Shown here piece after piece: positions 16,382-63,436 of a stretch of DNA of 64,000 bases (position 1 is the stretch's first letter; each line of letters begins with the position of its first letter). The DNA lies in the NCBI GenBank assembly GCA_045862955.1, contig BTVI01000005.1:1-64000 (forward strand), given 5' to 3'. The stretch is from Fimbriimonadales bacterium (GTDB taxonomy: Bacteria > Armatimonadota > Fimbriimonadia > Fimbriimonadales > JABRVX01). The notes below the pieces were generated by a model that saw only the letters and a list, made by a program, of their open reading frames with translations, was not told the DNA's origin and did not search any database. The position numbers and the translations under genes were made by a program.

Positions 16382-16385
<4 letters not shown>

Positions 16386-17374: not shown

Positions 17375-17391
17375 CTGATACTCCTATCGCC

Positions 17392-18225: not shown

Positions 18226-18641
18226 TGCATGCCTCCCTCGGGGGTGGGGGCGGACTGCCGAGTGGGCAATCCCTTTTCTTCTATCAGTTCCATCGCCCGC
18301 TCGATGGGGATGCGCGCGACGCCGCCCGCCTGATCCACCCATCCGTAGCTGTGCAGCGTGCGGTCTTCCTTTATGCGGAACTCGCGCATATCCAGCGCGG
18401 GATTCACCTGGAGAGGCGGTGCATTCGGGATCGGCTGCACAGCGTTGACTGGGCCAGTTTTCTGTCGCATCTTCTCGGGCGGCGGCATCGTCAGGTTGTA
18501 GATTCCCAGCGAGGCGAGTAGTGCTACTGCGATAAAAACTCCCAAGGCTATCGCCCACTTTAGCAGCGGACCCGTCGAGACGTCTCGCGGTTCATAGCCC
18601 AGTTGGGTCAGCGGATCGGGTGCGCGATGCTCATCCGACAT
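18222..18641 (-). CDS. Single-TM ACIII-associated protein (ActG-like)
   Basis: YEPRDV-TM-...PPLQ...YGWVD...RIPIERAM; overlaps both neighbours. Confidence 0.75.
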   Translation of the reverse strand: MSDEHRAPDPLTQLGYEPRDVSTGPLLKWAIALGVFIAVALLASLGIYNLTMPPPEKMRQKTGPVNAVQPIPNAPPLQVNPALDMREFRIKEDRTLHSYGWVDQAGGVARIPIERAMELIEEKGLPTRQSAPTPEGGMQ

Positions 18642-21004: not shown

Positions 21005-22407
21005 TGCGTCTCACCACCCCCAGGGCCGTGGAGCGCAACGGCCGGAGCCGCGTGGCCGGGCTTCATCTTGTGCAGCAGATCCTTCATCTCGAAGATATTG
21101 ATCATGGGCAGGTATCGGATGAAAAGGAACATCAAGAACGTGAACAGACCGATCGTGCCGAGGAACAGGCCCCAGTCCCAAATGGTAGGATCGTAGAAGC
21201 CCCAAGCGGAAGGCACGAAGTCCTCGTGCAGGCTAGTGACCACGATGATGAAGCGCTCGAGCCACATCCCCACGCTTACTACCAAACTGATAGCGAACAG
21301 CATGAGCGTGTTGCGACGGACCTTCGGCCACCACAACAGCTGCGGCACCAATCCGTTGCAGAAGATCAGGGACCAATACAGCAACGAGTAGGTGCCTGTC
21401 ATGCGGTTATTCCACATCATGTGCCACTCGAACTCGTTGGCGCTGTACCAGCCATAGAACGCCTCGGCGATGTAGCCGTAGAAAACGATCAATCCAGTCG
21501 CCAACATGATCTTCGCCATCCAATCTATGTGGCGCATCGTGATCATGTGTTCTAGCCCGTACCACTTGCGGATTGGTATGGTCAGCAGAAGAACCATCGC
21601 GAAACCAGCGTAAATGGCCCCAGCGACGAAGTAGGGCGGGAAGATGGTTGCATGCCAACCCGGGATGATGGAGACGGCAAAGTCCAAACTGACGACGCTA
21701 TGCACCGAGAGAACCAGCGGGGTCGAGAGGCCGGCGAGGATCAGGTAGGCCGTCTCATACCGGAACCAGTGTTTGACCGAGCCGCGCCATCCGAACGACG
21801 CGATTCCGAACAAACGCTTGACGATCAGGTTCTTCGCCTTGTCTCGCAGGGTGGCGAAATCCGGAATGAGGCCCACGAACCAGAACAGTGCCGAGACGGT
21901 TATGTAGGTGGTGACCGCAAACACGTCCCAGATCAGGGGGCTCTGAAACTGCGGCCAGGCGCCTAGGATGTTAGGGTAAGGCAACATCCAGTAGGCCGCC
22001 CATGGGCGACCCGTGTGCAGCAGTGGGAAGAGACCCGCGCACATGACGGCGAAGATGGTCATCGCTTCGGCGAAGCGGTTGATCGAGTTGCGCCAGTTCT
22101 GGCGTGTCAGCAAGAGTATCGCAGAGATGAGCGTACCCGCGTGGCCGATACCGATCCACCACACGAAGTTGATGATCGCGAAGCCCCAGCCGACGGGGAC
22201 GTTCACACCCCACACGCCGATGCCCATGTAGAGCAGCCACGCGAGGGAGAGCAACATCACGTTCAGCAACAGGAAACCGAGCGCGAAGCCGCCATACCAA
22301 GGCAGCTTGTGCGTGCGCTGGTCCAGGACGATCGAGCTGATCTGATCGCCCAGCGAACTGTAGCTGTTGCTGCCGGTCAGGACTCGGGTGTCCACTACGT
22401 CGCTCAC
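21001..22407 (-). CDS. actC: Alternative complex III quinol-binding subunit (NrfD family)
   Basis: FVWWIGIGHAGTLISAIL and SPLIWDVFAV motifs. Confidence 0.95.
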   Translation of the reverse strand: MSDVVDTRVLTGSNSYSSLGDQISSIVLDQRTHKLPWYGGFALGFLLLNVMLLSLAWLLYMGIGVWGVNVPVGWGFAIINFVWWIGIGHAGTLISAILLLTRQNWRNSINRFAEAMTIFAVMCAGLFPLLHTGRPWAAYWMLPYPNILGAWPQFQSPLIWDVFAVTTYITVSALFWFVGLIPDFATLRDKAKNLIVKRLFGIASFGWRGSVKHWFRYETAYLILAGLSTPLVLSVHSVVSLDFAVSIIPGWHATIFPPYFVAGAIYAGFAMVLLLTIPIRKWYGLEHMITMRHIDWMAKIMLATGLIVFYGYIAEAFYGWYSANEFEWHMMWNNRMTGTYSLLYWSLIFCNGLVPQLLWWPKVRRNTLMLFAISLVVSVGMWLERFIIVVTSLHEDFVPSAWGFYDPTIWDWGLFLGTIGLFTFLMFLFIRYLPMINIFEMKDLLHKMKPGHAAPAVALHGPGGGETQ

Positions 22408-25400: not shown

Positions 25401-25460
25401 CCGAATCTCGGCGATGGTCAGCTTTCTGTTGCTGTTGTCGTTTGTGTTCTCGGTTCCCAT
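22404..25460 (-). CDS. actB: Alternative complex III subunit B (molybdopterin-oxidoreductase-like + Fe-S)
   Basis: YWRSLDEL, Tat motif DRRQFLK, CIGCNAC, CMHCEKAPC, CIGTRYCSNNCPY and EKCTYC. Confidence 0.96.
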   Translation of the reverse strand: MGTENTNDNSNRKLTIAEIRARLEGKTGRAYWRSLDELADTPEFREFLQDEFPQQARSWAAEMDRRQFLKFAGASLALAGLVSGCRFLPQEKIVPYVKAPEDAIPGKPLYFATAITRHGYATGLIATSHEGRPTKLEGNPKHPASLGAADAVAQASVLNLYDPDRSTDVLFKGEPALWDAFVSMMRDVRRQHAMDGGAGLRVLTETITSPSMLALLRRLQQRYPQMVWHAYEPVNRDNVWEGARLAFGTVVDSVYHLDQADRILSLDADFLCSMPGSVRYAHDFASRRKVRKGVTEANRLYAIESSVSVTGANADHRIGVKPSAMADTARSLASRLGVAVSGAPSPLPDAWLNAVVEDLRAHAGRSLVIVGDEQPAEVHALAHTMNAALGNVGRTVTYVEAPPRPTHGSQRASLRALVSDLNAGRVQTVLVLGGNPAYYSPADLGFAAAFAKARLKIHVGSHVDETAVLSDWHVPESHFLERWEDARAYDGTVSITQPLIEPLYRSRSPLEVLQLLEGDPRRGYDILTDHWRSVQARADFENWWERAKHDGFIANSALPPISVTLRPDLASVLPRVSAANGIDLVFRPDPTVGDGRDANNGWLQELPKPLITVTWDNPVLMSPALAERLGVDTQDVIAIRVAGQQLEAVAWVQPGHPEDTVTAYLGGGRTRAGKLGTGVGFDTYRLRTVSGHDFAPGAEIRKTGRKHTLAATQNHHTLHGSVTQHGRDLLRVGTLAEFVRDPSLGHGGHDGHEKDLTLYEPPKSFRDYQGHRWGMSIDLSACIGCNACVVACQAENNIPVVGKDQVRRGREMHWIRIDRYFERGLDDPDVHFQPVPCMHCEKAPCEPVCPVAATTHSHEGLNQMVYNRCIGTRYCSNNCPYKVRRFNFYKYSAGQPNMAPGNYDHPTLKLLANPDVTIRGRGVMEKCTYCVQRINAARIKAKQERRPIADGEVVPACVQTCPTGAIVFGDVADAGSAVSKLKSEPHDYGLLTELNTRPRTTYLARIKNPNPRLSEEQA

Positions 25461-25470
25461 GCGTTCGTCG

Positions 25471-26217
25471 TTAGCGATGGCAGATCGAGCAGTCGGTTAA
25501 CTGCTCTTTGTCCACCTTATATTCCTTCATCAACTTCTTGCCCTCTGCGATCTCGGCGGGGGTGGGGTTGTAGGTCACACCGCGCAGAATGGCCTTCTCG
25601 CGCTCGGTTAGCGGTTCACCCCTTTGCGGCTTCAGATAGAGCTGGAAGATCTGCTCCGAGGGGGTCCGCTCGGGATGCGATCCGTCTTTGTAAAGGTGCT
25701 TTTCGACGTTTCGATGGCAGTCGAGGCACCACACCATGGTGAAGGCCTTCGCCTTGTACGTGAGGTCCATGGCTTGAACCGGGCCGTGGCACTCGTTGCA
25801 GTGGATGCCGCGGTCGACGTGGATCGCATGATTGAAGTACACGAACTCCGGCAGCTTGTTCACGCGGTTCCACTCGATGGGCACATTATCTTTGAAGCTG
25901 TCGCGCACCACGGCTAGCAACGGGCTGTTGGTCCACACCTGCGAGTGGCAAGACATACAAGTGTGGGTCGGCGGGATGCCCGCGAACGACGACTTCTCGA
26001 CCGAAGAATGGCAATACCGGCAGTCGATCCCGAGTTGGTTCACGTGGTGCTTGTGGCTGAAGGGAGCCGGCTGGTTTAGCGCGACGTCCACGTTAGTCTG
26101 ATATGGCGAGCGAGTTACGGCCGAGAGTGTGAAGATGAGTCCCAGAGGTAGGATGGGAAGGAGTGAGACACTCACCTTAGCAAGCGTATTCGCGTAGGGC
26201 GGAAAGATCTGCGCCAT
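25471..26217 (-). CDS. actA: Alternative complex III pentaheme cytochrome
   Basis: MAQIF N-terminus; five CxxCH motifs. Confidence 0.95.
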   Translation of the reverse strand: MAQIFPPYANTLAKVSVSLLPILPLGLIFTLSAVTRSPYQTNVDVALNQPAPFSHKHHVNQLGIDCRYCHSSVEKSSFAGIPPTHTCMSCHSQVWTNSPLLAVVRDSFKDNVPIEWNRVNKLPEFVYFNHAIHVDRGIHCNECHGPVQAMDLTYKAKAFTMVWCLDCHRNVEKHLYKDGSHPERTPSEQIFQLYLKPQRGEPLTEREKAILRGVTYNPTPAEIAEGKKLMKEYKVDKEQLTDCSICHR

Positions 26218-26889
26218 TGCTCCGAATCAGGATAGCCCGCCCGCGCGGCAGAGAGCGGTGCCCCCTCCGATCCTTCCCATAATCCGATTGTGAACCGGCA
26301 GCACGCGGCTGCCGAGCGAACGCCCCAACGTACCCGTTCTCCTTCCCCCGCATCGCGACGCGTCCATCCCGGAGGCCTGCTCCCCGGTTGCGTCGCTGCT
26401 TCGGTGGCGCCTCGGCGCGTCCCAGAAAAAGGAAACCCCGCCGAGGGCTTCCGCGTGGGACCATACCCGATGCCTCAAACCTTATGCAAGCGAAGTATTC
26501 GCTCCTCGCGTAAAAACTCGCGAACTGGGTACATAAGTACGCGGGACCGTGCGGGCTGGCGGTCCTGTGTGTTCCTGGACCATTTCGGGCGTCTCGGGTC
26601 CTCACGCAAAGGGCGCAACGGCACCGCAAAGATCCCAGAAGGGAGAGCGGACAAGGCGACGGGTTTCCCTCAGGCTAGGACAACCCTGGGACGTCACGAG
26701 CGAGTGTCCGGAGACGTTTTGACCGCCCTGACACGGGCGCTACGATCTCGGCGTACCCTCTGTGCACTTGGCGTGACACCTCGAGCTGCATTCAGGCCCA
26801 GCCTCTGACGATTGTGAACTGCAGCAGAGTCATGGCTCGGCACTCACGCACAACATGCGAAGGGGGCAGCGTCTCGAGGTTCTGGCCGG

Positions 26890-28713
26890 TCACAGTGAGC
26901 GGTCTATGGCCAGAGTAAGGAAGAGCAGGGCGAGGTAGAGCATCGAGTACTTGTAGAGCGACAGGGCGTGGGGACGGTCCGGGGTTCGCAAGAGCTGCGC
27001 GGAGCGCAGGATGAGCACTAGGTTCAGTGCGATGACCACACCGAGATACACGAGCCCTGTGTGCCTTTGCACCAGCGGCAGGAGAGAGATGATCGACGTA
27101 AGCAGCGCGTACAGCCCGATCTGCACCACCGTGAGGCGCTCGCCGAGCACCACCGGTGCCATGGGGATACCCGCCCGCGCATAGTCGTCGCGGATCAGCA
27201 ACGAGAGAGCCCAGAAGTGCACCGGGGTCCAGGCGAAGACGATGGCGAAGAGCAGCCAGGCCAGCGGGCTCAGGCTTCCCGTGACCGCAGCCCATCCGAC
27301 GAGCGGCGGGAAGGAGCCCGCGGCACCACCGATGACGATGTTGTGCCAGGTCCTTCGTTTCAGCACCAGCGTGTAGATAATCACGTAGAACACGAGCCCG
27401 GCGAGGGCGAGCATCGCCGCCAGCAGGTTGGCCGCCCACGTCAGGATGATGAACGACAGAAGCGCGAGCACCAGGCCGAAGATAAGCGCGTTGGTCGGCG
27501 GGACTTCGCGCGTGACAGTTGGACGCTTGGAGGTGCGGCCCATGCGGGCGTCCACATCCACGTCAATCGCCATGTTGATGGCGTTGGCAGCTCCCGCAGC
27601 CATATAGCCACCGATGAGCACCGCGAGCAACAAGCCGCCGCCGGGCCAGCCCCGCGCAGCCGCGAACATCGCGGCTACCGTCGTGAACAGTAATAGGCTG
27701 ATGACGCGTGGCTTGGTCAGCAGCAGGTAACTGCGCCACGTCGCCCGAGTGGCGCTCGGGGCATCGGATGCGGGCGGAGCTTCCGCGAAGCGCTCTGTGC
27801 GAGGGACGGTCTCCTGCATAGCGGACGCCGCGAACAGCAGGAGCACGATCCACATCACGTCTGCGACGACGAGGTGCACCATTTGAAGCCAGTGCGGAGT
27901 GAACAGCGCGATATTCGCCAGACCGATGACGCTTTGCGCTAGCACCAGTCCGACCAGCGCGCGGCTCCATACACGCACCTCGTTACTCGGCCGCAGGTAT
28001 GCGACGAGCCCCGCGATAAGAATGAGATAGAGCCCCACCGAGACCGCGAGAAGCGGGTGGACGCCGCGGACCTGCATGAGGAAGTGGGAGGTTGCGGGAA
28101 CGCTCTGTTCCATCACCTGGGCCATGTTCGCAGGCGGAAAGAGCGTATCTGCCAAGGCAGTCAGCGCCCCACTCACACCGAGAAGCAGGGTGGTGACGAT
28201 GCCGATCCAAAGCCCCCAACCGACCGCACCTTGTCCTCGCGCGACGACCTTGCGTTCCGCACCGCCGTGCCAAGCCGCCATGGCCGTGAGCGCAACGAGC
28301 AAGAACGTGTTGGCGAGGTGCAACGACACGGCGAAAGCACGCAAAGCCGAGGCGTTGTCTTCGACGAGGTCGAACTTCACCAGGCCTGCCCCGAGCAACA
28401 CCTCGATCACCATGACGAGGAGCGCCAGGGCCGCGTAGCGCCGGGCAGCATGACGAGGCGCGAAGCGCCGTCGAGCCCACACCGCCAGAACTACCACCAT
28501 GAAGAAGGAGAGCGCGCTGGTGAGACGGTGGGTCAGCTCGACGAAGAAATGAAACGCCTTGTTCGGGTCAATCCCTTCCTTGCTCCAGAAAGGCCACTGG
28601 TTGCCGAGACCCGCGCCGGAGCCGCTGGCACGAACGTAGGCTCCCCAAGCGATAACGGCAAGGAGAACCGCGAGCGTTAGCCAGGCGAAGTGGTTGAACC
28701 GGACCCTTCTCAT
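26890..28713 (-). CDS. ctaB: Fused heme A synthase (CtaA/COX15) - protoheme IX farnesyltransferase (CtaB)
   Basis: N-half GAYVRASGSG, ELTHR and HLA; C-half LTKPRV, DVDARMGRTSKRP and WTPVHFWAL. Confidence 0.92.
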   Translation of the reverse strand: MRRVRFNHFAWLTLAVLLAVIAWGAYVRASGSGAGLGNQWPFWSKEGIDPNKAFHFFVELTHRLTSALSFFMVVVLAVWARRRFAPRHAARRYAALALLVMVIEVLLGAGLVKFDLVEDNASALRAFAVSLHLANTFLLVALTAMAAWHGGAERKVVARGQGAVGWGLWIGIVTTLLLGVSGALTALADTLFPPANMAQVMEQSVPATSHFLMQVRGVHPLLAVSVGLYLILIAGLVAYLRPSNEVRVWSRALVGLVLAQSVIGLANIALFTPHWLQMVHLVVADVMWIVLLLFAASAMQETVPRTERFAEAPPASDAPSATRATWRSYLLLTKPRVISLLLFTTVAAMFAAARGWPGGGLLLAVLIGGYMAAGAANAINMAIDVDVDARMGRTSKRPTVTREVPPTNALIFGLVLALLSFIILTWAANLLAAMLALAGLVFYVIIYTLVLKRRTWHNIVIGGAAGSFPPLVGWAAVTGSLSPLAWLLFAIVFAWTPVHFWALSLLIRDDYARAGIPMAPVVLGERLTVVQIGLYALLTSIISLLPLVQRHTGLVYLGVVIALNLVLILRSAQLLRTPDRPHALSLYKYSMLYLALLFLTLAIDRSL

Positions 28714-40565: not shown

Positions 40566-41129
40566 TCAGCGACGCGGCGCGGGGCTCGGCTGGAATCGGA
40601 CCGATCCATCCGCAAACGCCGCGTTGTTACCGGGGCCCGACTTCGTGCGGTGGCGGCCTTCCGGCGGCAGGCTGGTGACGGGGTCGGCGGCGTTTCGCGC
40701 GAGGTTGGCCGAGTCGTACAGAAGGAAGGTGAGGCGGGGAGCGGCGATACGCGGGAGCGGCCGGGCGGCGAGATCCGCGTTCAACGCATAGCCGTACCTG
40801 TCCGACTCTGAACCGAACACCGGACACCGCAGGGAACGGCTCGAGGAGAGGTTCGGTCGTAGCGCGTCCATCCACACGGCGGCTGGAGGAAAGTAGCCGG
40901 AGTGGTCCTCGGCATACGCCAGGGCGGCTTGCGAGAGCAGGCGGAGGCGCGACTGACACCGATCGGTGTTACGTTCGGCCCACTGCAGGCTTAGTTTGGG
41001 GAACGCGATTGCGAGGAGCGCGCCCGACAAAACCAACAGCGTCCCGAACGCGACCAGCACCCACACGATGACACGCGCCCTTCGGCGAACCACATCGCGA
41101 TTATGCGGAAGCCGCGTCGGTCGGGTCAA
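40566..41129 (-). CDS. Pilin-like protein with a C-terminal H-X9-DG-type motif
   Basis: TM, CQSRLRLLSQAALAYAEDH..YFP, YGYALN and RH...NNAAFADGSVR; start uncertain. Confidence 0.75.
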   Translation of the reverse strand: MTRPTRLPHNRDVVRRRARVIVWVLVAFGTLLVLSGALLAIAFPKLSLQWAERNTDRCQSRLRLLSQAALAYAEDHSGYFPPAAVWMDALRPNLSSSRSLRCPVFGSESDRYGYALNADLAARPLPRIAAPRLTFLLYDSANLARNAADPVTSLPPEGRHRTKSGPGNNAAFADGSVRFQPSPAPRR

Positions 41130-42538: not shown

Positions 42539-42600
42539 AGGCATGCAACGCTCTCATGTCCGCAGCACCTATTCTGTCGGGTACCAATCCAGACATCTTG

Positions 42601-43212
42601 CCGTGATTCTGAGCTCGACGAGGCATGGCAACCGCTCATCCACCCGCGACGCGGCGAGCCACACCGTCATGCTGAGCCTGTCGAAGCATGGCAACCACCC
42701 AACGCGCTCAGAGCGCAGGCCCGGCAACGTCTCCTCGAGGCGCGAGACCGTGATGGTAGGTCCTCTGCATCGGGACCACCACGCAGCCACGCGGGAGGAC
42801 AGTCCCCACACCGTCATGCTGAGCCTGTCGAAGCATGGCGACCACCCAACGCGCTCAGGGCGCAGTCCTGGCAGCGTCACCTCGAGGCGCGAGACCGTGA
42901 TGGTAGGTCCTCTGCATCGGGACCACCACGCAGCCACGCGGGAGGACAGTCCCCACACCGTCATGCTGAGCCTGTCGAAGCATGGCAACCACCCAACGCG
43001 CTCAGGGCGCAGGCCCGGCAACGTCTCCTCGAGGCGCGAGACCGTGATGGTAGGTCCTCTGCATCGGGACCACCACGCAGCCACGCGGGAGGACAGTCCC
43101 CACACCGTCATGCTGAGCCTGTCGAAGCATGCGATCGGTAGCCGCATGGCAGCAGATCAAAGAGTCGGGTTGGCGGCCCCTGCCCGCATGCTTCGACAGG
43201 CTCAGCATGACG
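42601..43212. repeat. 147-bp tandem repeat built on REP-like family A (GTCATGCTGAGCCTGTCGAAGCATG), closed by an inverted copy
   Basis: Palindrome starts at 42664, 42811, 42958 and 43105 (exact 147-bp period); inverted copy at about 43186-43212. Confidence 0.95.
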
Positions 43213-43288
43213 GGCACTGGTCCTGCGTATCTCCTAAGGTCTCCACAGACGTCCACACCCTTCCGGGTGATGCTGGCAGGTGCTCCTA

Positions 43289-44537: not shown

Positions 44538-45263
44538 CTACCAGGAGACGAACTTCACATGACCGCCCACGTATAGCACGTTCGACCTTCGCACGCCGTG
44601 AACACTACGGGTTGCCGCTCCCGCAGCATAGTCCAGCCACAGCGCATCCTCGAGGTAGGGTGTATCCGGCGCCAAACTTCGCAGCCGATGTCGCAAGGTG
44701 TGACCTTCGCCCTCATACATGCAACGCTGCAGACGAAAGTCCAACTCGTAGCTAGTGTACAGCGAACGATGGTCCTTCGGATCGTCCATGTCGGCCAGAA
44801 AGCTCGGGTCGGCGCGGAACCTATCCGCGGCACACCAGAAGACCTCGTCGGAGCGAGTGTACATCTTAAGGGAGTCCCGCCAGAGCTGTGGTCGGCCTGC
44901 GATGAAGCATTTCAGGTTGTCATAGGGGGGCGGGTAGTCGTCCCGGTACTCTTCGGGAGGGGGCGCAGATGTACCGCCGCCCTCCCCTGGCTTCAGCGCC
45001 CAGTAATGGGTCTGGAGCGGATGGCACGGTAGCAGTCCTACGTGATCGTCTGCGTACATCACGCTAGCTTTGTGAAGCTGCGCAAGATTGGATGCGCAGC
45101 TCCCGGCTTGCGCTTTCGACTTGACGAAGTTGAGAACCGGCATGCTAATCGCGGCGAGCGCGAGCAGGATGGCGATGACCACGAGGGTCTCGACCAGAGT
45201 AAGCGCTCGTGAGCAGCAGCTTCGGCCCAGCGAGGTTGACCTAGTTACGGCTATTCCGGCCAT
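44538..45263 (-). CDS. Prepilin-type N-terminal cleavage / DUF1559-like protein (cassette B)
   Basis: ALTLVETLVVIAILLALAAI..P, CASNLAQL...MYADDH..LP, VFWCAAD and HGVRRSNVLYVGGHVK; start uncertain. Confidence 0.85.
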   Translation of the reverse strand: MAGIAVTRSTSLGRSCCSRALTLVETLVVIAILLALAAISMPVLNFVKSKAQAGSCASNLAQLHKASVMYADDHVGLLPCHPLQTHYWALKPGEGGGTSAPPPEEYRDDYPPPYDNLKCFIAGRPQLWRDSLKMYTRSDEVFWCAADRFRADPSFLADMDDPKDHRSLYTSYELDFRLQRCMYEGEGHTLRHRLRSLAPDTPYLEDALWLDYAAGAATRSVHGVRRSNVLYVGGHVKFVSW

Positions 45264-45955
45264 AGGAGTTCGCATCGCTTCCTGGCAACCTGCCCCACGT
45301 CATACTCCCCAGTGCAGTCGGTAGTGTAGTAGTAGTGCCTCTGGCAAGAAGTCGGGTAGCAATTGTAGTTCTCGTTGATGCACTGCGTAGCGTGATTCGC
45401 GAGCTGCCGGTACGACATCCCCGAGCCCCACGGCGCGCACGCGATAAGCTCGCACACGCGGTGCCCTTGTCTGCAATTCGAACGGTCTTCCAGCATTAGA
45501 CCGATGCTGGCCCAGCCTAGTCCTACCGCTAGGAACAGGACAACGGCCCCAACGCTGCGCGCGGCAACGGTAGGACACTGGCTAGCCGACATCTGTCGCA
45601 CCGTCGCTACAGCTATGACAGCGAAACAAGTCCAGACGCCGAGGCACAGCGGGCAGACCATGCCACCGACGGCCATGGAATTCAGGGCCACCACCGCGAC
45701 AGGCAGCCCGCAGAACGTGCAGAAGCGCCCTAGGCGCTGCCATATGCCGTGCTCGCCGCGAGCGAAAAGCTGAAGCACGAAGTAGCCGATGCCAGCGATT
45801 GGAGGCATGAACGCGATGAGTGTCGCTCCGACGAGAACAGCGCCCGAGCAGTCGCAGATGCGCAACCCTCCGGCAGATGCGATCCTAGCAGCTAATAGGG
45901 AAAGGGAAAGTACTACCCCTACCCAGCACGCCCAGTTCGTAAGCTTATTCGTCAT
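45251..45955 (-). CDS. VKOR-like membrane protein fused to an 8-Cys C-terminal mini-domain (cassette B)
   Basis: About five hydrophobic helices, loop CDC, CPLC at a helix start, Cys-rich tail; GAGGTG SD. Confidence 0.75.
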   Translation of the reverse strand: MTNKLTNWACWVGVVLSLSLLAARIASAGGLRICDCSGAVLVGATLIAFMPPIAGIGYFVLQLFARGEHGIWQRLGRFCTFCGLPVAVVALNSMAVGGMVCPLCLGVWTCFAVIAVATVRQMSASQCPTVAARSVGAVVLFLAVGLGWASIGLMLEDRSNCRQGHRVCELIACAPWGSGMSYRQLANHATQCINENYNCYPTSCQRHYYYTTDCTGEYDVGQVARKRCELLWPE

Positions 45956-46006
45956 TCCTACACCTCTCCGTTGCATCCTCTGCGGTCTGCAGAGCATGCC
46001 TAGTCA

Positions 46007-46035
46007 AATATACAGCGTCTCGCTCCGCAGGTCAA
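46007..46035 (-). promoter_or_regulatory. sigma70 promoter TTGACC-17-TATATT
   Basis: Exact 17-bp spacing; equivalent element at 47961-47989. Confidence 0.75.
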
Positions 46036-46061
46036 GTTCTCACCGCGAAACTCCTGTAAAC

Positions 46062-46388
46062 CTACACGAGGAAAAGGCTTGCGGTCAATCTGGTGCCTGG
46101 ACTCACGTCAGCGTTTGCGGACCGAGGCGCAGGCGCAGATGTACCGCCGCCCTCCCCTGGCTTCAGCGCCCAGTAATGGGTCTGAAGCGGATGGCACGGT
46201 AGCAGTCCTACGTGATCGTCTGCGTACATCACGCTAGCTTTGTGGAGCTGCGCAAGATTGGATGCGCAGCTCCCGGCTTGCGCTCTCGACTTGACGAAGT
46301 TGAGAACCGACATGCTAATCGCGGCGAGCGCGAGGATGATCACCACTACCACCAGCAGCTCCACAAGCGTTATTGCGCCTAGTCTCAC
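46062..46388 (-). pseudogene. Truncated prepilin-type gene, near-identical to the 5' part of 44538..45263
   Basis: About 200 bp direct repeat (46132-46334 vs 44962-45164, about 4 mismatches), then runs into the promoter block. Confidence 0.8.
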
Positions 46389-46555
46389 ACCACACCTCGT
46401 TTCGGCCGGCCCACATTGGCGGTGGGAGCAACTGCGGGCCTACCCGCCGCAGCCCCACGGTACCTCGCGGCAGGCGACGAAACTGGCAGTCTCGTTGTCG
46501 GATGCCTCCGCTGTGCCCGGCATCGGGCAGCTCGTGGTGCCAGCGTAGTTCAGGA

Positions 46556-47176
46556 CTAGTCCGCCCGCGTATACCGCACGCTGCCATCGAGGTAGAGCGC
46601 GTTGGCGCCGCCACCGTGGAACGTCTTCCAAGACGTCGAACCTGGTCGCGGCCACCACTGCGCGTCGCCGATGTAGGGGGTCTCAGCCGGTCCGCGCTTT
46701 GTCCTGTCAAGACGAATCGCGAGGGCCTGGCTTGGTCCCCACGATGACCTCATGTGGGCGAGAACTGCCATCCGATAGCTGGTATACAGGTAGCTCTTGT
46801 CTTCTGGGTAGTCGAGGAAGACCACGAAGGGCTTCCCCCGATACCCGTCGGCGGGACACCAGAACACCTCTCGGGACTTGGCGTAAACGGCTAGCGCGTC
46901 CCGCCACTCCCTGGGACGACCGATCACCTTGGTCTCCATCCTACCACGTTCGTCAACAGCCTTGATAGACTGAATGGAGTGGCAAGGTAGCCAGCCGCTG
47001 TGGTCGCCCGCATACATCAGGACGGCCTTTCCGATCTGGCTCAGGTTATTTGCGCACCCGGACACGAGGCTTCGGGACCTAACGATGTTCGCGACAGGCA
47101 GAGCGATAGCAATCAGCGCCAACAAGATCACCACGACGACCAATAGCTCGACGAGCGTGAAGGCTTTAGTCCTCAT
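46556..47176 (-). CDS. Prepilin-type N-terminal cleavage / H-X9-DG protein (cassette A)
   Basis: MRTKA|FTLVELLVV, CANNLSQIG...MYAGDH, VFWCPAD and HGGGANALYLDG. Confidence 0.9.
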   Translation of the reverse strand: MRTKAFTLVELLVVVVILLALIAIALPVANIVRSRSLVSGCANNLSQIGKAVLMYAGDHSGWLPCHSIQSIKAVDERGRMETKVIGRPREWRDALAVYAKSREVFWCPADGYRGKPFVVFLDYPEDKSYLYTSYRMAVLAHMRSSWGPSQALAIRLDRTKRGPAETPYIGDAQWWPRPGSTSWKTFHGGGANALYLDGSVRYTRAD

Positions 47177-47185
47177 ATCACACCG

Positions 47186-47907
47186 CTACTTCGGGGGTGG
47201 AGGCAGATGATGACAGCATTTCCTGCTATAGTACTGGCCGTACCACCACCCGTTGCCTGGGCAGTCCGGCTCCTCGTACACCCTCATGAAGCAGCTCATC
47301 CAGTCGCAGCCCGGGCCATTCCAGTCATAGCAGCGATCGTAACCATTTGGCAGTCTCAACGTCGAACCGCCGAGAGGGCCCTCAGGGTAGCAGCCGTAGT
47401 CACAGCAGTGGCCGTCCGGATCGCAATTTGGATTGGGCTCAGACATTGCGCCCACGCCCTGTGCGACCGCGATACCTACTACGAGAAGCACTACTACCGA
47501 TGCGAGGCTACGAACCACCGAGAGGGGCTTGGCACGAGCCACGATCTCCCGCACGGTCGCCGCGACTACGACACCGAAGCACACCCAGACGCCGAGGCAC
47601 AGCGGGCAGACCATGCCACCGACGGACATGGAATTCAGGGCCACCACCGCGACAGGCAGCGCGCAGAACGTAGACAGGCGTGAGAAACCCTGCCATCTTC
47701 CGCGCTTCCAGCTGCCGAGTAGCTGGATGATGAAGTAGCCGATGCCCGCGATTGGAGGCATGAAGGTCATGAGTGTCGCCCCGACGAGGACTGCGCCCGA
47801 GCAGTCGCAGATGCGCAACCTCCGGCTGATGCGATCCTAGCAGCTAATAGGGAAAGGGAAAGTACTACCCCTCCCCAGCACGCCCAGCTTGTGAGTTTGT
47901 TCATCAC
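47186..47907 (-). pseudogene. VKOR-like + 10-Cys mini-domain protein (cassette A) with a 1-bp frameshift near 47820
   Basis: Paralog of 45251..45955; GGAGGGTTG in B vs GGAGGTTG here; may be a sequencing error. Confidence 0.7.
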
Positions 47908-47960
47908 GCCTACACCTCTTCCGGGGCACCCTGTGCGTGCTGCAGAGCATGCCCAGTTAA

Positions 47961-47989
47961 AAGATACGGCGACCGCTGTAAGATGTCAA
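47961..47989 (-). promoter_or_regulatory. sigma70 promoter TTGACA-17-TATCTT
   Basis: Consensus -35 and 17-bp spacer; duplicated at 46007-46035. Confidence 0.8.
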
Positions 47990-48121
47990 GTCCTCACCAA
48001 GAGATTCCTGTGACTCCGCATGAGGGTAAGGCTTGCGGCCACGCCCGTGCCTGGTTTCACGCTAGCGTCTCCGGCCCGTCGCACAGGCACAGCTTTCTGG
48101 CGGGAGAGCGTAGGTGTGACA

Positions 48122-48160
48122 ACCCTCACCCCGGCCCTCTCCCTTCGAAGGGAGAGGGAG
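48122..48160. repeat. REP-like family B copy after prfA
   Basis: ACCCTCACCCCGGCCCTCTCCCTTCGAAGGGAGAGGGAG. Confidence 0.75.
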
Positions 48161-48163
48161 GGG

Positions 48164-49225
48164 CTACTGTGCGGCAGCGGCGAGAAGCTTGGCTTGGTGA
48201 TCGGCGATGAGGGCGTCGCAAAGGGGCTGCAGGTCGCCGTCCATGATGCCTGACAGGTTAGTGATGGTCAAGTTGATCCGATGGTCGGTTACGCGGTTCT
48301 GGGGGTAGTTGTAAGTGCGTATCTTGTCGCTCCTATCACCGGTTCCGATGGCAGCCTTTCGGGAGGCGTCGGCCGTGGCGGTCTGCGCAGCCAGCTCGCG
48401 TTCATACAGCTTCGCGCGCAGTACCTTCATCGCCTTGTACTTGTTTTGTGCCTGCGAGCGCTCGTCCTGACACTGCACCACGATGCCCGATGGCTTGTGC
48501 ACCAAACGGACTGCCGTCTCGTTCTTCTGCATGTGCTGCCCGCCCGCGCTGCTCGCACGGAAGCTCTCCCACTCGATATCCGCCGGATTGATCTCGACGT
48601 CCACCTCATCGGCCTCTGGGATCACTACCACGCTGGCAGCGCTGGTATGGATGCGTCCGCTGCTCTCGGTGGCGGGGACCCGCTGCACTCGATGCACGCC
48701 GCTCTCGTGCTTCAGCTGGCTGTATGCGCCTTTGCCCTCGATGTTGAAGGTGATCAGGCTTGCCCCGCCCATGTCGGACTCTTCGTAGTCCACCAGTTCG
48801 GTCTTCCAGCCTTTGCGTTCGGCAAAGCGGGCGTACATGTTGTACAGGTCTCGCGCAAAGAGGGCAGCTTCCTCGCCGCCGACCCCCGCACGGATCTCGA
48901 TCACGACGTTCTTTTCGTCGTTCGGATCCTTGGGTAGCAGCATGATGCGCAGCTTGTCCTCGAATTCTGCGATCTGGGCGCGGAGCCGGTCCACCTCGTC
49001 GAGGGCCATGTCCCTCATCTCGGGGTCATCCACCAGGGCTCGCGCCTCGGCGAGCTGCTCGTGGGCCTCTCGATAGGCGCGATACACGCCGACGATGTCC
49101 TCCAGCTCGGCCCGGATCTTCCCTAGCCGCTGCAGTTCCTTGGGGTTCGAGGCAACGTCCGGGTCCGCCAGCAGACGCTCTGCCTCTTCATAGCGCTCTT
49201 CTACCTGTTTCAGCTTGTCTAGCAC
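48164..49225 (-). CDS. prfA: Peptide chain release factor 1
   Basis: GGEEAALF, HRVQRVPATE (PxT motif), GGQ and IRTYNYPQNRVTDHR. Confidence 0.98.
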   Translation of the reverse strand: MLDKLKQVEERYEEAERLLADPDVASNPKELQRLGKIRAELEDIVGVYRAYREAHEQLAEARALVDDPEMRDMALDEVDRLRAQIAEFEDKLRIMLLPKDPNDEKNVVIEIRAGVGGEEAALFARDLYNMYARFAERKGWKTELVDYEESDMGGASLITFNIEGKGAYSQLKHESGVHRVQRVPATESSGRIHTSAASVVVIPEADEVDVEINPADIEWESFRASSAGGQHMQKNETAVRLVHKPSGIVVQCQDERSQAQNKYKAMKVLRAKLYERELAAQTATADASRKAAIGTGDRSDKIRTYNYPQNRVTDHRINLTITNLSGIMDGDLQPLCDALIADHQAKLLAAAAQ

Positions 49226-57830: not shown

Positions 57831-60452
57831 CTACTCCTGCACCACTCGTACTGTGAGAAACAGTACCACCTCGGACCCGGTCTTGGTCTTCGAGCGATGG
57901 CGGAATAGCTGTCCCAAGAAGGGCAGGTCACCTAACAGCGGCACCTTGGTCATCGTCATCAGCTCTTCTTCGCGGATGAGGCCGCCGATGACGATGGTCT
58001 CGCCGTCCCTCATGCGGATGTTAGTGTCCACGTTGCGCGATGCCACCTGCGGGAGCTTCCCGCCACCGGGTACGTCGTTGAACGCAGTGATGAGGCTCAC
58101 GTCGGTCGCCAATGACAGTGTCACGCTGTTGTCGGGTGCTACGCGAGGCGTGGCGTTCAGCAGGATGCCGGCTTGGACCTCGCCGATGGTGATGGTCGGA
58201 CCGGTGGTAGTCTGCGATATCTGCTCGACGTACTTCACGATGTCGCCGATGAAGATTCTCGCCGGCCTGCCATCCAGCGCCGACACCTTGGGACTGGCTA
58301 GCAACTTGGATCTCTTACTTACTACCAGGGCGTCCAAGATGCCGTTGATAGATCCGATGAAGGTTTTCGGATTGAACGACATGTTGAACGTGTTGACGAT
58401 GGGATCGCCGAGCGTCTCGAACGTTCGCTGCCAGTCGTTAGTAGTATTGTACTGGTTCCTCTGCTCGAAGGTATTGTTACCCACCTTATCGTTCAGCTGC
58501 GAGTTGCCGTCGCGTACGTTCTGCTGAGTCTCGCCGGTACTGGCACGCTCGATGTTCTGAACGTTGATGACACCGTTGTCGAATAGGTCCCACTTGACAC
58601 CCAGCTTGTCCAAGTCGTCGCGCAGAACGTCCATGACCTTGGCCTCTATGACCACCTGCGGCTCCGGCTTGTCGAGCTGAGCTAGCAGCTGCAGTGCCTG
58701 CCCGACCTGCTCTTTGGGGCCGGTCACTAACAGGTGCCGAGAGGGCTCGGGTTCCCGTTGCTGTGTCTTCACTCCGGCGGGCACGATGGTCATCGGACCT
58801 TCGGTTACCTTCACCCCAGGGATGAGGCTCGATGTGCCGTCGCCCGACTTGCCACCCGAATCGGTTCCGCCGGAGAAGAGGGATTGTAGCGAGCGGCTGC
58901 TCAGGTGCTTGGCGACGTACACCTCGGTAACCTGATCGAACGGCACGTCGAGAACGGCGAGAATTTCGAGAGCCTTATCTACCGCCGCTCGCGGGCCCTT
59001 CAGAACCAGCTTGCGATCGTCGCCGCTCGCAGGGCCCGTTTCGCCGCCGCCTGCCGGCTTCGTCTCCGTCTTGGCAGCTTCTTCCTGCGCGGCGCCGCCG
59101 GCCTCTTGCGGCTCCTCGGGCACAGCGCCACCGGTCGTCTTCGTGGTCGCGGCCTGTTCCGTGTCCTTTGCCTTGGCCGCAGACGCGCCGGCCTGGGCTC
59201 CTTTGGCCTGCTTAGCAGCCATGCCGAGGGCGGAAGGGCCCACCATCGCTAGCACGCCGGGCACCAGGTTCTTCGCTCCCTGGAAGTAAGTCTTCAGGTC
59301 GTGAGCGTCACGGTGGCGCGCGGTGTAGATCTCGATCACCTCATCCTGCGAGAGGTGCGTAGTGAGCAGCATTCGCGCGCGTTGCACCTCTGGAGCCGGT
59401 CCCCGAATGGCTACCACCGGCGCTCCGCCAGCAGGCCCGGGCATCACCTTGACGCTCGGCATGAGCGATTGTAGGGACTCCGCGATCTCCTGTGGCGAGC
59501 CTGTCACTGGCACGAACTCCGTGACATCCTGAAGCGGTACATCCTGCTGACCGGGAGGCGCCTCGGTGGTAGCGAAGCGCTTCAGGAAATCCTCGGTGCC
59601 GACAACGTAGGTTCGGCCGACCAGCGCGTAGCGATACCCGGCCATGGTGGTGATTAGTTCGAGTGCGGTTCGCACACTCTCGTCGCGCATCGAGACGGTG
59701 ATCTCCCCCTTCACGTCCGGTGCAGTGACGATGTTCACACCGGCGTTCTGGGCGAGTGCGCGCAGGATAACCACCACGTCGGCCTTCGGGAACTCGAGCG
59801 AGACCTTGGCATCCGGCACCGGCGGCCGCTGAGCCGCTTGGGGAGCCGCGGCACGCACGCGCTGCTGCTGAGTCTCACGCTGCCGCTGCTGTTCTGCCAG
59901 GTCTGCCTTGCCTTCGTAGGTGTTCTGGCGGACGGTGTCAGCAGTCTTCGGAGCTACCGTCGGCATCGGCTCGGAAGCGGGTATCACGGCAGGCGCAACC
60001 GGCTTCGTAGCCGGGTCGACCTTCGGAGTGACATCGGGCTTTGGCGCGACAGCAGGCGACTTTTCCGAGACCACTCCCAGCCAGATCAGCCAGTCGCCGT
60101 TAGATGCTTGCTCCACGACGGGCTGGACGCCTGGGTCGATCCAGGCAAGCACATTGACGACCGGAGGCTTAGCTTTGAACCACCCATACTGGACGTAACG
60201 TACCTTAGGCTGCTTGAGCGAGACGTACTGCGCCTTAATTCCGAGCGAGGCATTGAACGATGCGATCCATGCCTTGCCGGCGTTCGACCGTGAAAATGTA
60301 GGCTGCGGGAGGTCGGTGCCTTGCACACGGACGACTGCGCCGTCGCCCTGCTTGGTCACGGTTACTTTGGTGATGGTCGGCCCTGCCCAAGCCATGCCGG
60401 TGAGCAGCAGGCCGGCCCCCAGAACAACGAAGCTATTTCTTGTCTTCAACAA
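57831..60452 (-). CDS. Secretin (PilQ/GspD family)
   Basis: Signal peptide; N0/N3-like repeats; QVVIEAKV, LGVKW, GETIVIGGL and KVPLLGDLPFLGQLFR. Confidence 0.93.
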   Translation of the reverse strand: MLKTRNSFVVLGAGLLLTGMAWAGPTITKVTVTKQGDGAVVRVQGTDLPQPTFSRSNAGKAWIASFNASLGIKAQYVSLKQPKVRYVQYGWFKAKPPVVNVLAWIDPGVQPVVEQASNGDWLIWLGVVSEKSPAVAPKPDVTPKVDPATKPVAPAVIPASEPMPTVAPKTADTVRQNTYEGKADLAEQQRQRETQQQRVRAAAPQAAQRPPVPDAKVSLEFPKADVVVILRALAQNAGVNIVTAPDVKGEITVSMRDESVRTALELITTMAGYRYALVGRTYVVGTEDFLKRFATTEAPPGQQDVPLQDVTEFVPVTGSPQEIAESLQSLMPSVKVMPGPAGGAPVVAIRGPAPEVQRARMLLTTHLSQDEVIEIYTARHRDAHDLKTYFQGAKNLVPGVLAMVGPSALGMAAKQAKGAQAGASAAKAKDTEQAATTKTTGGAVPEEPQEAGGAAQEEAAKTETKPAGGGETGPASGDDRKLVLKGPRAAVDKALEILAVLDVPFDQVTEVYVAKHLSSRSLQSLFSGGTDSGGKSGDGTSSLIPGVKVTEGPMTIVPAGVKTQQREPEPSRHLLVTGPKEQVGQALQLLAQLDKPEPQVVIEAKVMDVLRDDLDKLGVKWDLFDNGVINVQNIERASTGETQQNVRDGNSQLNDKVGNNTFEQRNQYNTTNDWQRTFETLGDPIVNTFNMSFNPKTFIGSINGILDALVVSKRSKLLASPKVSALDGRPARIFIGDIVKYVEQISQTTTGPTITIGEVQAGILLNATPRVAPDNSVTLSLATDVSLITAFNDVPGGGKLPQVASRNVDTNIRMRDGETIVIGGLIREEELMTMTKVPLLGDLPFLGQLFRHRSKTKTGSEVVLFLTVRVVQE

Positions 60453-61029
60453 CGCCCCCTCCGATTGCCAGAGTCACGGTCTTCTTTAGATGCCGTACGG
60501 TCACGGAACGAGGTGTCACCTTCAGAATGCGAGTCGTGTCGTCTGCCGTGTGGCCCTCGCGAACCAACACCTGTTCTCCCGTGGCATTGCGCAGGACGAC
60601 GATGGGAACGGGTCCGACCACCACCCCGACTGCTTCCCAGCCACAGCCGTTCAGGGCCTTCTCGGCAGGCAGTGATGGAGGTGGGTTGCCGCCGAGCGGC
60701 TCGAGCTTGGGCGAATCGATGGCCTGGGTAGGGCGCTCCGCTTCCGGCGGCCTGAACCGCGTGCCATCCGGCAGACGCCCCGGGCCTGTCTCGGTTGCCG
60801 CCGTTGCACCCGCAGGCTTCGCGAACGGGTCTCGCACCGGCCCGATGCGTACGCCGTCGGGCAGCGGCATCTCTTGCGCCGGCTCGGCGCCCTTGGTCTC
60901 TGCCTGCTTCTTCGGCTGCTTGGGCTCGGGACGCGGCTCGTTCTTCGGCCCTCCTATGAATTGGAGTGCGCCCACGCCGAGCAACGCCACTGCCAAGGCA
61001 CCGACGATGAGAACCTTCTTATCCGCCAC
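60433..61029 (-). CDS. PilP-like protein
   Basis: TM, RDPF motif and C-terminal beta domain (LVREG...ILKVTPRSVTV); lies between PilO and the secretin. Confidence 0.7.
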   Translation of the reverse strand: MADKKVLIVGALAVALLGVGALQFIGGPKNEPRPEPKQPKKQAETKGAEPAQEMPLPDGVRIGPVRDPFAKPAGATAATETGPGRLPDGTRFRPPEAERPTQAIDSPKLEPLGGNPPPSLPAEKALNGCGWEAVGVVVGPVPIVVLRNATGEQVLVREGHTADDTTRILKVTPRSVTVRHLKKTVTLAIGGGVVEDKK

Positions 61030-61726
61030 CGCTCACCCCCTGAGTCGAGCCCGGACGATCCGTGGACGCTCGGGATGGGGACTCCGCGAGGTTTTGTGGT
61101 TTCGTCGGGAAGATGTACGCCCTAACGCCAAAGGTTGCGGTCAGCTTTGGCGGACCTACGTCTCTCGGGTTCGGCGAGGCGCTGATGGACACGGATCTCA
61201 CGGCAATGATCTTCGGGAATCCGCTGACCATTTCGAGGAACTTGAGGACCTGAAGGTACTGGCCGGTGGCCTCGATTTCGAAATCCATCTCCTCGTAAGG
61301 CTTCCGCTCTTCCTTTTTCTTGGAATCGTCCTTCGGTGCACCGGGAGCGGCCTGCTCTTTCTCCTCGCCCGTGGGCTTCGGCTTCTCCTTTTTGGGCACG
61401 GGGCGCACACCGGTAATGCGCAGGCCCGAGGCATGCCCCATCGCCTCTAGCTCGCGGAGCATGGTGGGGACGTAGTCGCGGGTCGGGAGGTTGAGCTCCA
61501 AGTGCGCGACGGCCAGCCGGCTGGAAACCGTGGCGTTTCGCAGCTGCGAGACCTGGCGGCGCAGGGCTTCCGGGTTCTCCAGCTCTTTCGCCAGCTTGTC
61601 GGCTTCGGATTTGACCGACTGCCACTCGGCTGCCTGCATGTAGCTCAGTCCACCGGCGAGGATCAGTGAAATCACCGTCAGTAATAGGAACACACGCTGC
61701 GACTTTGCGAGGGCATCATGAGTCAC
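61019..61726 (-). CDS. pilO: Type IV pilus PilO-like protein
   Basis: TM + coiled coil, LP...VPTML and ATGQYLQVLKFL; start uncertain. Confidence 0.85.
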   Translation of the reverse strand: MTHDALAKSQRVFLLLTVISLILAGGLSYMQAAEWQSVKSEADKLAKELENPEALRRQVSQLRNATVSSRLAVAHLELNLPTRDYVPTMLRELEAMGHASGLRITGVRPVPKKEKPKPTGEEKEQAAPGAPKDDSKKKEERKPYEEMDFEIEATGQYLQVLKFLEMVSGFPKIIAVRSVSISASPNPRDVGPPKLTATFGVRAYIFPTKPQNLAESPSRASTDRPGSTQGVSGGG

Positions 61727-62318
61727 CGGCCTTGCCTCCTTCCTTCGCTTCGGCGTCCCTCGGAACGGTGAGCTTTGCAACGATTTCGAACTCGACGCCG
61801 ACGTTGTTGCCGGACTCCTTTTCCTTGGTGTACTTCAGCTCCACTTGAGCGAGGTCTGGACACTCGTTCAGTCTTTGCATAACCGTGCCGACCAAGCTCT
61901 GGTCCTGAGCGTAACCTGCGAACCGAATCTCCACACCTTGCCCCGCGGTCTTCGCCTCCTGAGCTCGGAGGCTCGTCAGCCAGGTGTTCTGGGGCATTCG
62001 AGCCGCGACGTGGCCGAGCACACGATGCCACGTCCCGGTTGCGCGGCTTGCTGCTTGGAGGGTGGTCAGCTTGGGACGAAGGACTGCCAGTTCCTTTTGA
62101 CCTTCTGTGATGGCATGCTGATAGGGTTGCATGCCGGCACTCTTAGACTTCAGGTCAGCGAGTCGGTCATTCTGGCGGTCCACTTGCCACGTCAGCCCAC
62201 CGACAGCTGCCAGCCCGGCACCGAGTGAGATGACCCAGGCAAGCATGAACGCACGCGTCTTGCGCACCGCCAGCCGCTTCAGGGCCCTCTGTTCTGAGAT
62301 CAGGTTGACTAAAGGCAC
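61716..62318 (-). CDS. pilN: Type IV pilus PilN-like protein
   Basis: VNLI N-terminus, TM, MPQNTWLTSL and GYA. Confidence 0.88.
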   Translation of the reverse strand: MPLVNLISEQRALKRLAVRKTRAFMLAWVISLGAGLAAVGGLTWQVDRQNDRLADLKSKSAGMQPYQHAITEGQKELAVLRPKLTTLQAASRATGTWHRVLGHVAARMPQNTWLTSLRAQEAKTAGQGVEIRFAGYAQDQSLVGTVMQRLNECPDLAQVELKYTKEKESGNNVGVEFEIVAKLTVPRDAEAKEGGKAGDS

Positions 62319-62332
62319 GGTGAACTCACCTC

Positions 62333-63436
62333 CTAAGCCACCATCGCCTGGCGGCCGGTGCGTCGCATGGCCAATCCTGTGGCTACGCCGTATTCGGAGC
62401 CTTCTTCTGGGTCCACCCCCTCGCTGCCGACGAGGAACCTCGGGCTTTCCCAGGCACTGAGGAACTGACAGGGCAGACCCAGCTTGTATCCGAGGTAATC
62501 GGCGATCCCCTTCATTCGCGCTGCCCCGCCGCTTAGTAACAGCACCGACACAGGCGCGACCGATGAGGCCTCGGACTGCTGGGTCTGGTAGTAGTTGATG
62601 GAGCGGCGCAGCTCTCGAACCATCTCGTCCACGATGGGTTGCACCAGGCGGAGCTGGGGTGGCACCTCGGTGTTCTGTTCTGCACCGACGAGCGGCGAGA
62701 AGTCGAGCGAGTGCTTGGAGGTCCTTGCTGTCTCCTCGTCAGTCCGGAAGAAGGTCTTGAGGGCTTCTGTGAGGGTCTCTCCGGCGATGGGGATGGAGCG
62801 CGTAAGGGAGAACTGTCCGTTAGCCACCACGCTTATGTGGGTGTGTGCCGCCCCCATGTCGACCAGAGCCATCGTACGCTCCGCGTAGGCATCGTCACGA
62901 CGTGCCTCGATGAGGGCCCGGTAGAGAGCGAAGCCTTCGATGTCTACCACCTCGGTCTCGAGGCCCGCGTGATGGAGCGCGGCAACACGGCTCTCGACCA
63001 TGTCCTTCGGCGCGGCGACAACCAAGACATCCATCTTGCCGTCCCCCGCGTCTCCCATCATGTCGAACTCGATGTAGCTGTCCTCCACCGAGGACGGCAC
63101 GTACTTGCCAGCTTCGAACTTGATGGACTTGCGGAGAGCCGCTTCGTTCATTTTGGGGAGCTTGATGGAGCGTACGATGACCGAGGAGCCGGCGACTGCG
63201 ATGTTGGCGGCGGTAGCTCCTACTCCCGTGCGTCTCAACAGGTCCCGCAACGCAACGCCGAGCCTGTCCGGGTCCACGACGACACCGTCCCGCACCGTCT
63301 CCTCTGGCGTTTCGGCCTTAGCGAAGTGGCTAACCAGCAGTCTGTCGCCCGCGGGCTCGACCTGAGCGATCTTGATGGAATAGCTCCCTATGTCTACGCC
63401 GACGAACGTGTCTCGGCTGAATAGCTTAAGACCCAT
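62333..63436 (-). CDS. pilM: Type IV pilus assembly protein PilM
   Basis: VGVDIGSYSIK, VDMGA, LSGGAA and GLAMR actin-like motifs. Confidence 0.95.
   Translation of the reverse strand: MGLKLFSRDTFVGVDIGSYSIKIAQVEPAGDRLLVSHFAKAETPEETVRDGVVVDPDRLGVALRDLLRRTGVGATAANIAVAGSSVIVRSIKLPKMNEAALRKSIKFEAGKYVPSSVEDSYIEFDMMGDAGDGKMDVLVVAAPKDMVESRVAALHHAGLETEVVDIEGFALYRALIEARRDDAYAERTMALVDMGAAHTHISVVANGQFSLTRSIPIAGETLTEALKTFFRTDEETARTSKHSLDFSPLVGAEQNTEVPPQLRLVQPIVDEMVRELRRSINYYQTQQSEASSVAPVSVLLLSGGAARMKGIADYLGYKLGLPCQFLSAWESPRFLVGSEGVDPEEGSEYGVATGLAMRRTGRQAMVA

Follow-up and report, generated by a model that had tools for sequence, protein, structure and literature searches.

What do two neighbouring, partly repeated gene units on a contig of a Fimbriimonadales bacterium encode, each setting a membrane protein with a variable cysteine-rich tail in front of a pilin-like protein? 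We examined a window of 64,000 nucleotides (contig BTVI01000005.1, GenBank assembly GCA_045862955.1, positions 1 to 64,000; Armatimonadota, JABRVX01), in which positions 44538-48060 hold two minus-strand units, A and B, each composed of a promoter, a membrane-protein gene and a prepilin-type gene. The units are copies of an undescribed two-gene recognition cassette that combines a new miniprotein family, a pilin-like partner and a lineage-restricted VKOR-derived fusion, and whose function we infer. Below, G000 is the genome of the window (94 contigs, among them C2, C6, C7, C16, C20, C49 and C63) and G001 the sole other genome of the genus compared, to which the C23 site belongs.

The tails are one new family of about 75 residues with eight cysteines and a predicted all-beta structure, without a family or fold match. 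The original prediction had taken them for variable, cysteine-knot-like domains of very divergent sequence; they proved to be homologous members of a single eight-cysteine family, six-stranded in the model and with no cystine-knot match. Of 228 genomes of the order searched with iterated profiles, 19 contain tails, G000 among them, and a sample of the phylum yielded them in 7 of 401 genomes, all within the order and three not seen before, for a total of 31 loci in 21 other genomes and four in G000. The eight cysteines form the conserved core of the family. Pfam returned nothing significant save one weak match in 1 of 21 members, NCBIfam matched 0 of 30, sequence searches of the PDB with the tail and the pilin head found no match, the best fold-search hit reached Z 3.2 among 48,161 chains with none at E ≤ 0.001 in the PDB or a viral library, and the Atlas gave no usable feature match. 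One distant tail, that of P0006, lies outside the tail-only alignments (A10 and A11) and hence outside the tail model and the interface counts. Among 28 stand-alone tails examined outside the genus, 22 follow an in-frame signal-peptide-like stretch, one sits at a contig edge and five appear broken. A role as cationic antimicrobial peptides was rejected, the median net charge of the tails being −1. The parts of the two units are as follows.

47961-47989, minus strand: sigma-70-like promoter of unit A, from its hexamers and spacing
47186-47904, minus strand: unit A fusion gene (VKOR-like domain, fifth helix, 10-cysteine tail), frameshifted near 47819
47189-47443, minus strand: miniprotein tail A, which shares 67-71% identity with the C2 tail
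46556-47176, minus strand: pilA, intact prepilin-type H-X9-DG/DUF1559 protein of 206 residues, over the cut-offs of PF07963, PF07596 and TIGR04294
46062-46388, minus strand: truncated third prepilin gene between the units, about 79 codons near-identical to pilB, then the unit B upstream region
46007-46035, minus strand: sigma-70-like promoter of unit B, from its hexamers and spacing
45587-45955, minus strand: unit B VKOR-like four-helix domain, residues 1-123, with C34, C36, C101 and C104
45503-45553, minus strand: unit B fifth hydrophobic helix by hydropathy, residues 135-151, ending in a signal-peptidase-I-like small-residue site
45251-45490, minus strand: miniprotein tail B, 79 residues, 8 cysteines, six beta strands in an AlphaFold2 model of predicted local distance difference test score (pLDDT) 90.5
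44538-45275, minus strand: pilB, prepilin-type partner with uncertain start codon and degenerate H-X9-DG motif, predicted to bind tail B

At 34 of the 35 loci the gene directly downstream of the tail is pilin-like, the exception being a 34-residue fragment in G015; the 34 include all three tail loci that were found last and did not enter the profiles. By comparison, 4 of the 59 N_methyl/DUF1559/H-X9-DG-type reading frames of G000 have an upstream tail of the family, with a remnant at a fifth. The original prediction would have been refuted by homologues with constant C-termini and no consistent linkage to prepilin-type genes; the linkage proved consistent and the tails variable. The partner heads measure about 170-190 residues, with no truncated, headless pilin among them, and 32 of 36 partners retain the class III signal (29 recognised by pattern, three more by eye). 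As for the expected H-X9-DG signature, pilA passes the model and pilB fails it; against the N_methyl cut-off of 21.2 bits, pilA scores 22.8 and pilB 18.6, the motif nonetheless being present. TIGR04294 at E ≤ 0.01 recognises only 2 of 31 partner heads, yet most show a similar motif. Two cassettes elsewhere in the order, L031 (G084) and L112 (G103), adjoin Rhs-like repeat fragments, and neither of their partners has the class III motif; that of G084 carries a lipobox-like stretch.

One way to read a conserved class III signal is as a mark of cargo handling: a minor pilin would take up the miniprotein, a variable adhesin or effector, in the periplasm and carry or display it on a type IV pilus by way of the secretin. 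The genome encodes the prepilin peptidase (PilD), PilMNO and the secretin, and the pilus machinery expected nearby was found within the window.

57831-63436, minus strand: secretin, PilO, PilN and PilM genes, a possible export route with no specific link to the cassettes seen

There are precedents. The Vibrio cholerae minor pilin TcpB binds secreted TcpF, encoded in the same operon (PMC9565799), which similarly pairs a pilin-like protein with a co-encoded exported partner and possible pilus-dependent release; here, by contrast, the genes form dispersed, polymorphic two-gene cassettes outside the pilus operon, and a small disulfide-locked partner is predicted to bind over a large face rather than through an N-terminal hook. 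Planctomycetes genes of DUF1559 type often have signal-peptide genes at their sides (PMC8567305).

Binding itself, which the cargo account shares, is predicted. Modelled together, the pilB head and tail B reached a score of 0.88, compared with 0.01 for the best control, supporting the proposed association of a tail with its cognate pilin; runs shared at least 91% of contacts, with partner pLDDT of at least 83. Among solved complexes, 116 of 157 attain the mark used for such scores, as do 2 of 215 mismatched pairs; these counts apply only approximately to the alignments used here. Sequence searches turned up no solved structure related to either chain, which makes it less likely that the score reflects a structure already known to the model. 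In the model the closest contacts pair strands, pilin residues 38-42 with tail residues 64-69, and the predicted interface takes in 22 of the 79 tail residues.

Differences between paralogues gather at the predicted interface on both partners. In seven pilin pairs they fall at 107 of 174 interface positions, compared with 149 of 480 in polar non-interface columns; in six tail pairs the figures are 82 of 128 and 60 of 125. The sharpest case is that of the tandem pilins of C49 and C63, which differ at 13 of 28 interface residues and at 6 of 143 elsewhere, the proportion of non-synonymous differences in the interface (pN, 0.27) exceeding that of synonymous ones (pS, 0.09; Fisher p=0.002), and in the pairing strand the tail remnant before the C63 pilin likewise departs from the C49 tail. 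Across the aligned pilin heads, conservation is lowest in the interface columns (modal residue frequency 0.22, compared with 0.42), where a cargo adaptor would be expected to keep a conserved interface. Among tail columns overall, the interface is not less conserved (p=0.25).

The same contacts might instead belong to an obligate heterodimeric pilin, in which the miniprotein completes the pilin head as PilA-C does and the variation is antigenic or phage-driven. Strand pairing over so large an interface would suit this, as would the co-variation of tail and partner identities (29 pairs, Mantel r 0.62). PMC11046646 likewise describes heterodimers of a pilin with a non-pilin, Geobacter PilA-N (61 residues) with PilA-C (104 residues) and Streptococcus sanguinis PilA with PilC. 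The pilin here, however, is full-headed, its own 170-190-residue head being modelled at pLDDT 87, and its partners occur in several copies, vary at the interface and have often disappeared, leaving orphan pilins intact; moreover, substitutions concentrate on the contact face, and linkage alone would also yield the co-variation. We regard a heterodimeric pilin as improbable.

Comparison of copies bears on what outlasts what. G000 holds further units, intact on C49 and frameshifted near its start on C2, and an extra pilin on C63. C49 and C63 share 141 identical bases at their ends and together form an array of fusion, pilin, 3′ tail remnant and pilin; it is flanked by a direct repeat of about 148 nucleotides from the 3′ end of the neighbouring gene, 88% identical (C49:19056-19203, C63:13511-13658), no integrase was noticed in the fetched regions around it, and G001 has an empty site in its place. 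G001 carries a cassette next to a cytochrome c554 gene at its C23 site; G000 lacks one there, and prfA is followed by a different gene. The C2 orthologues of G000 and G001 are broken differently and retain pilins 95% identical; phase variation at the C2 G-run was considered and discarded, G001 showing that the run arose by loss of two bases. An intact pilin lies behind a broken or remnant tail at unit A, C2, C63 and two G001 copies, and probably in G015, G156 and G158, making about eight such cases against one to three of the reverse.

This asymmetry, with partners outlasting their putative cargo genes, and the variable interface both speak against a simple cargo adaptor, which we nonetheless consider a close rival, a little less likely than a recognition pair; it is in any case compatible with a recognition role, as an adaptor may mask its cargo too. 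The many broken copies and partial tandem duplications could also be taken as neutral duplication debris without functional pairing. Conserved cysteines, purifying selection, an order-wide gene order and the predicted complex largely refute that idea, and we give it very little credence. A recognition pair accounts for the interface and orphan patterns no worse than simple display does.

How the tail is made in this genus turns on the domain in front of it. The two membrane proteins of about 235 residues that had been described are present to different degrees: unit B is whole (234 residues, P0001), whereas unit A, read from its ATG at 47904, has one base fewer than unit B near 47819, putting the first 30 codons, and with them the first helix, out of frame. 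The database record for unit A, P0004, starts at 47818; in four public contig sets aligned to the region, none of the pieces listed spans the site. The CDC and CPLC motifs and the sequence switch after ATVR are all as described, and the 5′ parts common to both units are 82-90% identical in DNA; the N-terminal domains, earlier called near-identical, are 56-87% identical in the pairs compared. In all searches this domain was confined to G000, G001, P0003 and the distant full-length fusion P0006, whose genomic context was sought and not found. The VKOR-like fusion thus appears, from sequence searches, to be a trait of this genus and two unplaced proteins (P0003 and P0006), and it is not the heart of the system that it had been thought to be, most relatives lacking it and carrying stand-alone tails. 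Of three weak matches to the domain in the order, two were unrelated and the third, a VKOR-thioredoxin fusion, immediately precedes a prepilin gene; a G249 match to the fusion search was spurious.

Descent of this domain from VKOR has modest but consistent support, from sequence comparison, as a divergent homologue and not a family member. In a profile search VKORs ranked 11, 15, 16, 34 and 38 of 21,883 targets (best E 0.17), the first ten ranks being the N-terminal family itself, and VKORs outscored other membrane proteins (p=3e-4) as well as CxxC membrane proteins (p=0.004); one VKOR aligned across positions 3-114 with cysteines in register. An Atlas feature search pointed to VKOR clusters at 0.87-0.88, a lead only, and the Atlas model matched predicted VKOR models at template modelling (TM) scores of 0.74-0.77 over 121 residues, below the naming bar of the method. 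Conversely, the cassette proteins were absent from the top 30 of 21,183 targets in a reverse search with a VKOR profile, profile-profile comparison with hhalign gave a probability of 6.8 with only the CxxC matched, and Pfam VKOR (PF07884) scored 11.2 bits on the unit A piece (cut-off 27.5) and found no match in P0001. AlphaFold2 modelled the whole fusion poorly (pLDDT 47.8), and fold searches with that model, in which VKOR was not listed, gave no informative match.

Of the claimed VKOR identity, the ancestry has this modest support and the CxxC and second loop cysteine are in place, whereas the domain falls short at the Pfam cut-off, the spacing of the loop cysteines and the serine. The fourth helix starts with C101-P-x-C104, aligned with the VKOR CxxC and invariant in 7 of 7 sequences, and C36, kept in all seven down to 28-34% identity, aligns with the second VKOR loop cysteine; the first loop cysteine is absent from its canonical place, the VKOR pair (human C43/C51) lying 6-8 residues apart in alignment A7. 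Six of the seven have a loop CxC, and P0006 a single loop cysteine. Human VKOR S57 represents a conserved Ser/Thr six residues past the second loop cysteine (PMC4555120); here that position holds Val (Phe in P0006), with an invariant Thr at +9, and two of the five signature residues named in that paper are out of place. Relative to VKOR-thioredoxin/DsbA fusions (Synechococcus VKOR, PDB 3KP9, described in the same paper), the protein shares four predicted helices plus a fifth, the helix-4 CxxC, the second loop cysteine and a C-terminal extracytoplasmic domain, but has the loop shortened to CxC, the canonical serine replaced and a Pfam score below cut-off, and its C-terminal domain is a putative substrate rather than a thioredoxin, in a genome that also has a normal VKOR-DsbA (C16).

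The N-terminal domain probably helps to oxidise the tail. Its ratio of non-synonymous to synonymous substitution (dN/dS) is 0.27-0.53. In each of the five fusion proteins examined, a small-residue site closes the fifth helix, probably a signal-peptidase-I site at which the tail would be cleaved. A competing view of this domain alone makes it a catalytically dead VKOR remnant, serving as an anchor or long signal while the housekeeping VKOR-DsbA oxidises the tail. The displaced first loop cysteine (missing entirely in P0006), the replaced serine, the low Pfam and hhalign scores, the want of a fused thioredoxin domain and the absence of such a domain from most relatives would all fit. Against it stand the invariance of C36, C101 and C104, the dN/dS just given and analogous modules that bear dedicated CxxC genes. 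We find a dead remnant quite conceivable, though we lean towards an active domain.

Those modules lie in G000 at C7:58660-60424, C20:63267-64896 and C6:77499-79252, each combining genes for a CxxC thioredoxin-like protein, a pilin-like protein and a secreted protein with 10-12 cysteines, the last belonging to families other than the tail family. Around stand-alone tails, 6 of 22 regions have a downstream thioredoxin-like CxxC gene, three with weak Pfam support. A private redox partner thus recurs but is optional. Second VKOR or VKOR-DsbA paralogues occur in other genomes of the order (L092-L100, L156), and those at L098 and L156 adjoin prepilin-like genes.

We tentatively favour a polymorphic ligand with a cognate binder, following a toxin-immunity or self/non-self recognition logic. 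On this reading, the upstream gene would yield an exported beta-sheet miniprotein of about 75 residues held by about four disulfides, made in this genus behind the divergent VKOR-like domain and fifth helix, the former probably aiding oxidation of the tail and signal peptidase probably freeing it. The downstream gene would supply a membrane-anchored, type-IV-pilin-like protein, processed by prepilin peptidase and predicted to bind the miniprotein strand to strand, so that the miniprotein would act as a released ligand and the pilin-like protein as its cognate neutraliser or receptor. The predicted binding faces diversify jointly, with cassettes gained and lost and partner genes retained after the miniprotein gene breaks. 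Traits of toxin-immunity type are present, namely an adjacent cognate binder (by predicted binding), a polymorphic interface and orphan binders; interfaces that diversify together and orphan binders that are retained agree with a ligand paired to its own neutraliser or receptor. The family, its linkage and turnover, the orphans and the substitution pattern are read from sequence, and the fold and binding come from models.

Several points weigh against a ligand with a cognate neutraliser. The class III signal retained by most partners suits a pilus role and is not needed for immunity. One pilin is split beside an intact tail (G143, L119), and in G103 and G154 intact tails have partners without a class III motif. 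Whole-gene dN/dS in paralogue pairs is 0.24-0.71, purifying overall (flanking control 0.06), and the pairs compared are not independent. The interface derives from the single pair B model, mapped through alignments also used as its input; modelling covered cognate pair B and controls, and close cousins can pass the score mark. The tails' net charge is unlike that of membrane-active peptides. Finally, 16 of the 22 stand-alone tail regions have no neighbouring redox gene, some of them ending at a contig edge, and a housekeeping VKOR-DsbA is found in 57 of 61 genomes (including G000, on C16, and G036, marked unpublished), so a private oxidase is dispensable.

A bolder version, which we think somewhat unlikely, would make the H-X9-DG/DUF1559 pilin-like proteins of this branch cognate receptors or immunity proteins for new-fold, disulfide-locked miniproteins, in a pilin-based self/non-self or antagonism system with orphan receptors; the ligand in this genus would be a self-oxidising precursor, its VKOR-derived domain forming disulfides in the fused tail directly, without a thioredoxin relay, before release by signal peptidase. 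The cassettes resemble polymorphic toxin-immunity arrays with orphan modules, such as those of contact-dependent inhibition (CDI) and Rhs systems, which have a ligand gene upstream, a cognate binder downstream, a co-diversifying interface and orphan binders behind 3′ remnants of ligand genes; here, in contrast, no toxin domain was recognised, there is no carrier protein and the binder is type-IV-pilin-like.

Prepilin-like genes of the DUF1559/H-X9-DG type number 59 here and dozens elsewhere: another genome has 79 PulG-like genes (PMC4072686), and a further one 91 genes with both domains (PMC8567305). The pilA protein passes all three models of this family (N_methyl, DUF1559/SBP_bac_10 [PF07596] and H-X9-DG [TIGR04294]). 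For this family the literature searched mentions neither a specific partner family nor a predicted interface that diversifies. A full-text literature search, judged by titles and the starts of abstracts and covering few subscription papers, returned no account of this pair or of a VKOR fused to a cysteine-rich substrate. One branch of these proteins gains a small defined partner with a predicted interface, and nature supplies a series of cognate and non-cognate pairs, so that the function of the pair is approachable with two small recombinant proteins. Further gains are a novel miniprotein scaffold rich in disulfides and, joined to its putative substrate, a candidate VKOR-type oxidase.

Other features concern the locus itself. 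The two promoter-headed units of the original prediction are both there, each with a sigma-70-like promoter on the minus strand; the search for such promoters found 3 sites, compared with 0.8 ± 0.9 in shuffled sequence, and the C49 and C2 copies are preceded by hexamers similar in sequence and spacing to those of the unit A promoter. The truncated prepilin gene (46388-46062) is 92% identical to pilB across 239 nucleotides. In public runs X6 and X12, a 30-letter joint (45984/47940) links the unit A upstream region to unit-B-like sequence, which suggests a graph branch, a strain mosaic or reordered units and is given no evidential weight. Just upstream of unit A, 48120-48170 belongs to a short palindromic repeat family with many copies in the genome, and 42600-43213 holds three repeats of 147-nucleotide period and a long inverted repeat, the unit being palindromic with more than 100 matches in G001. 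A further H-X9-DG-type protein, its class III signal not clear, is encoded beside selA at 40566-41129 (minus strand). Farther off, 13918-28713 (minus strand) carries genes resembling those of alternative complex III, for a multihaem cytochrome c, an Fe-S protein and NrfD, and after them genes for cytochrome c oxidase.

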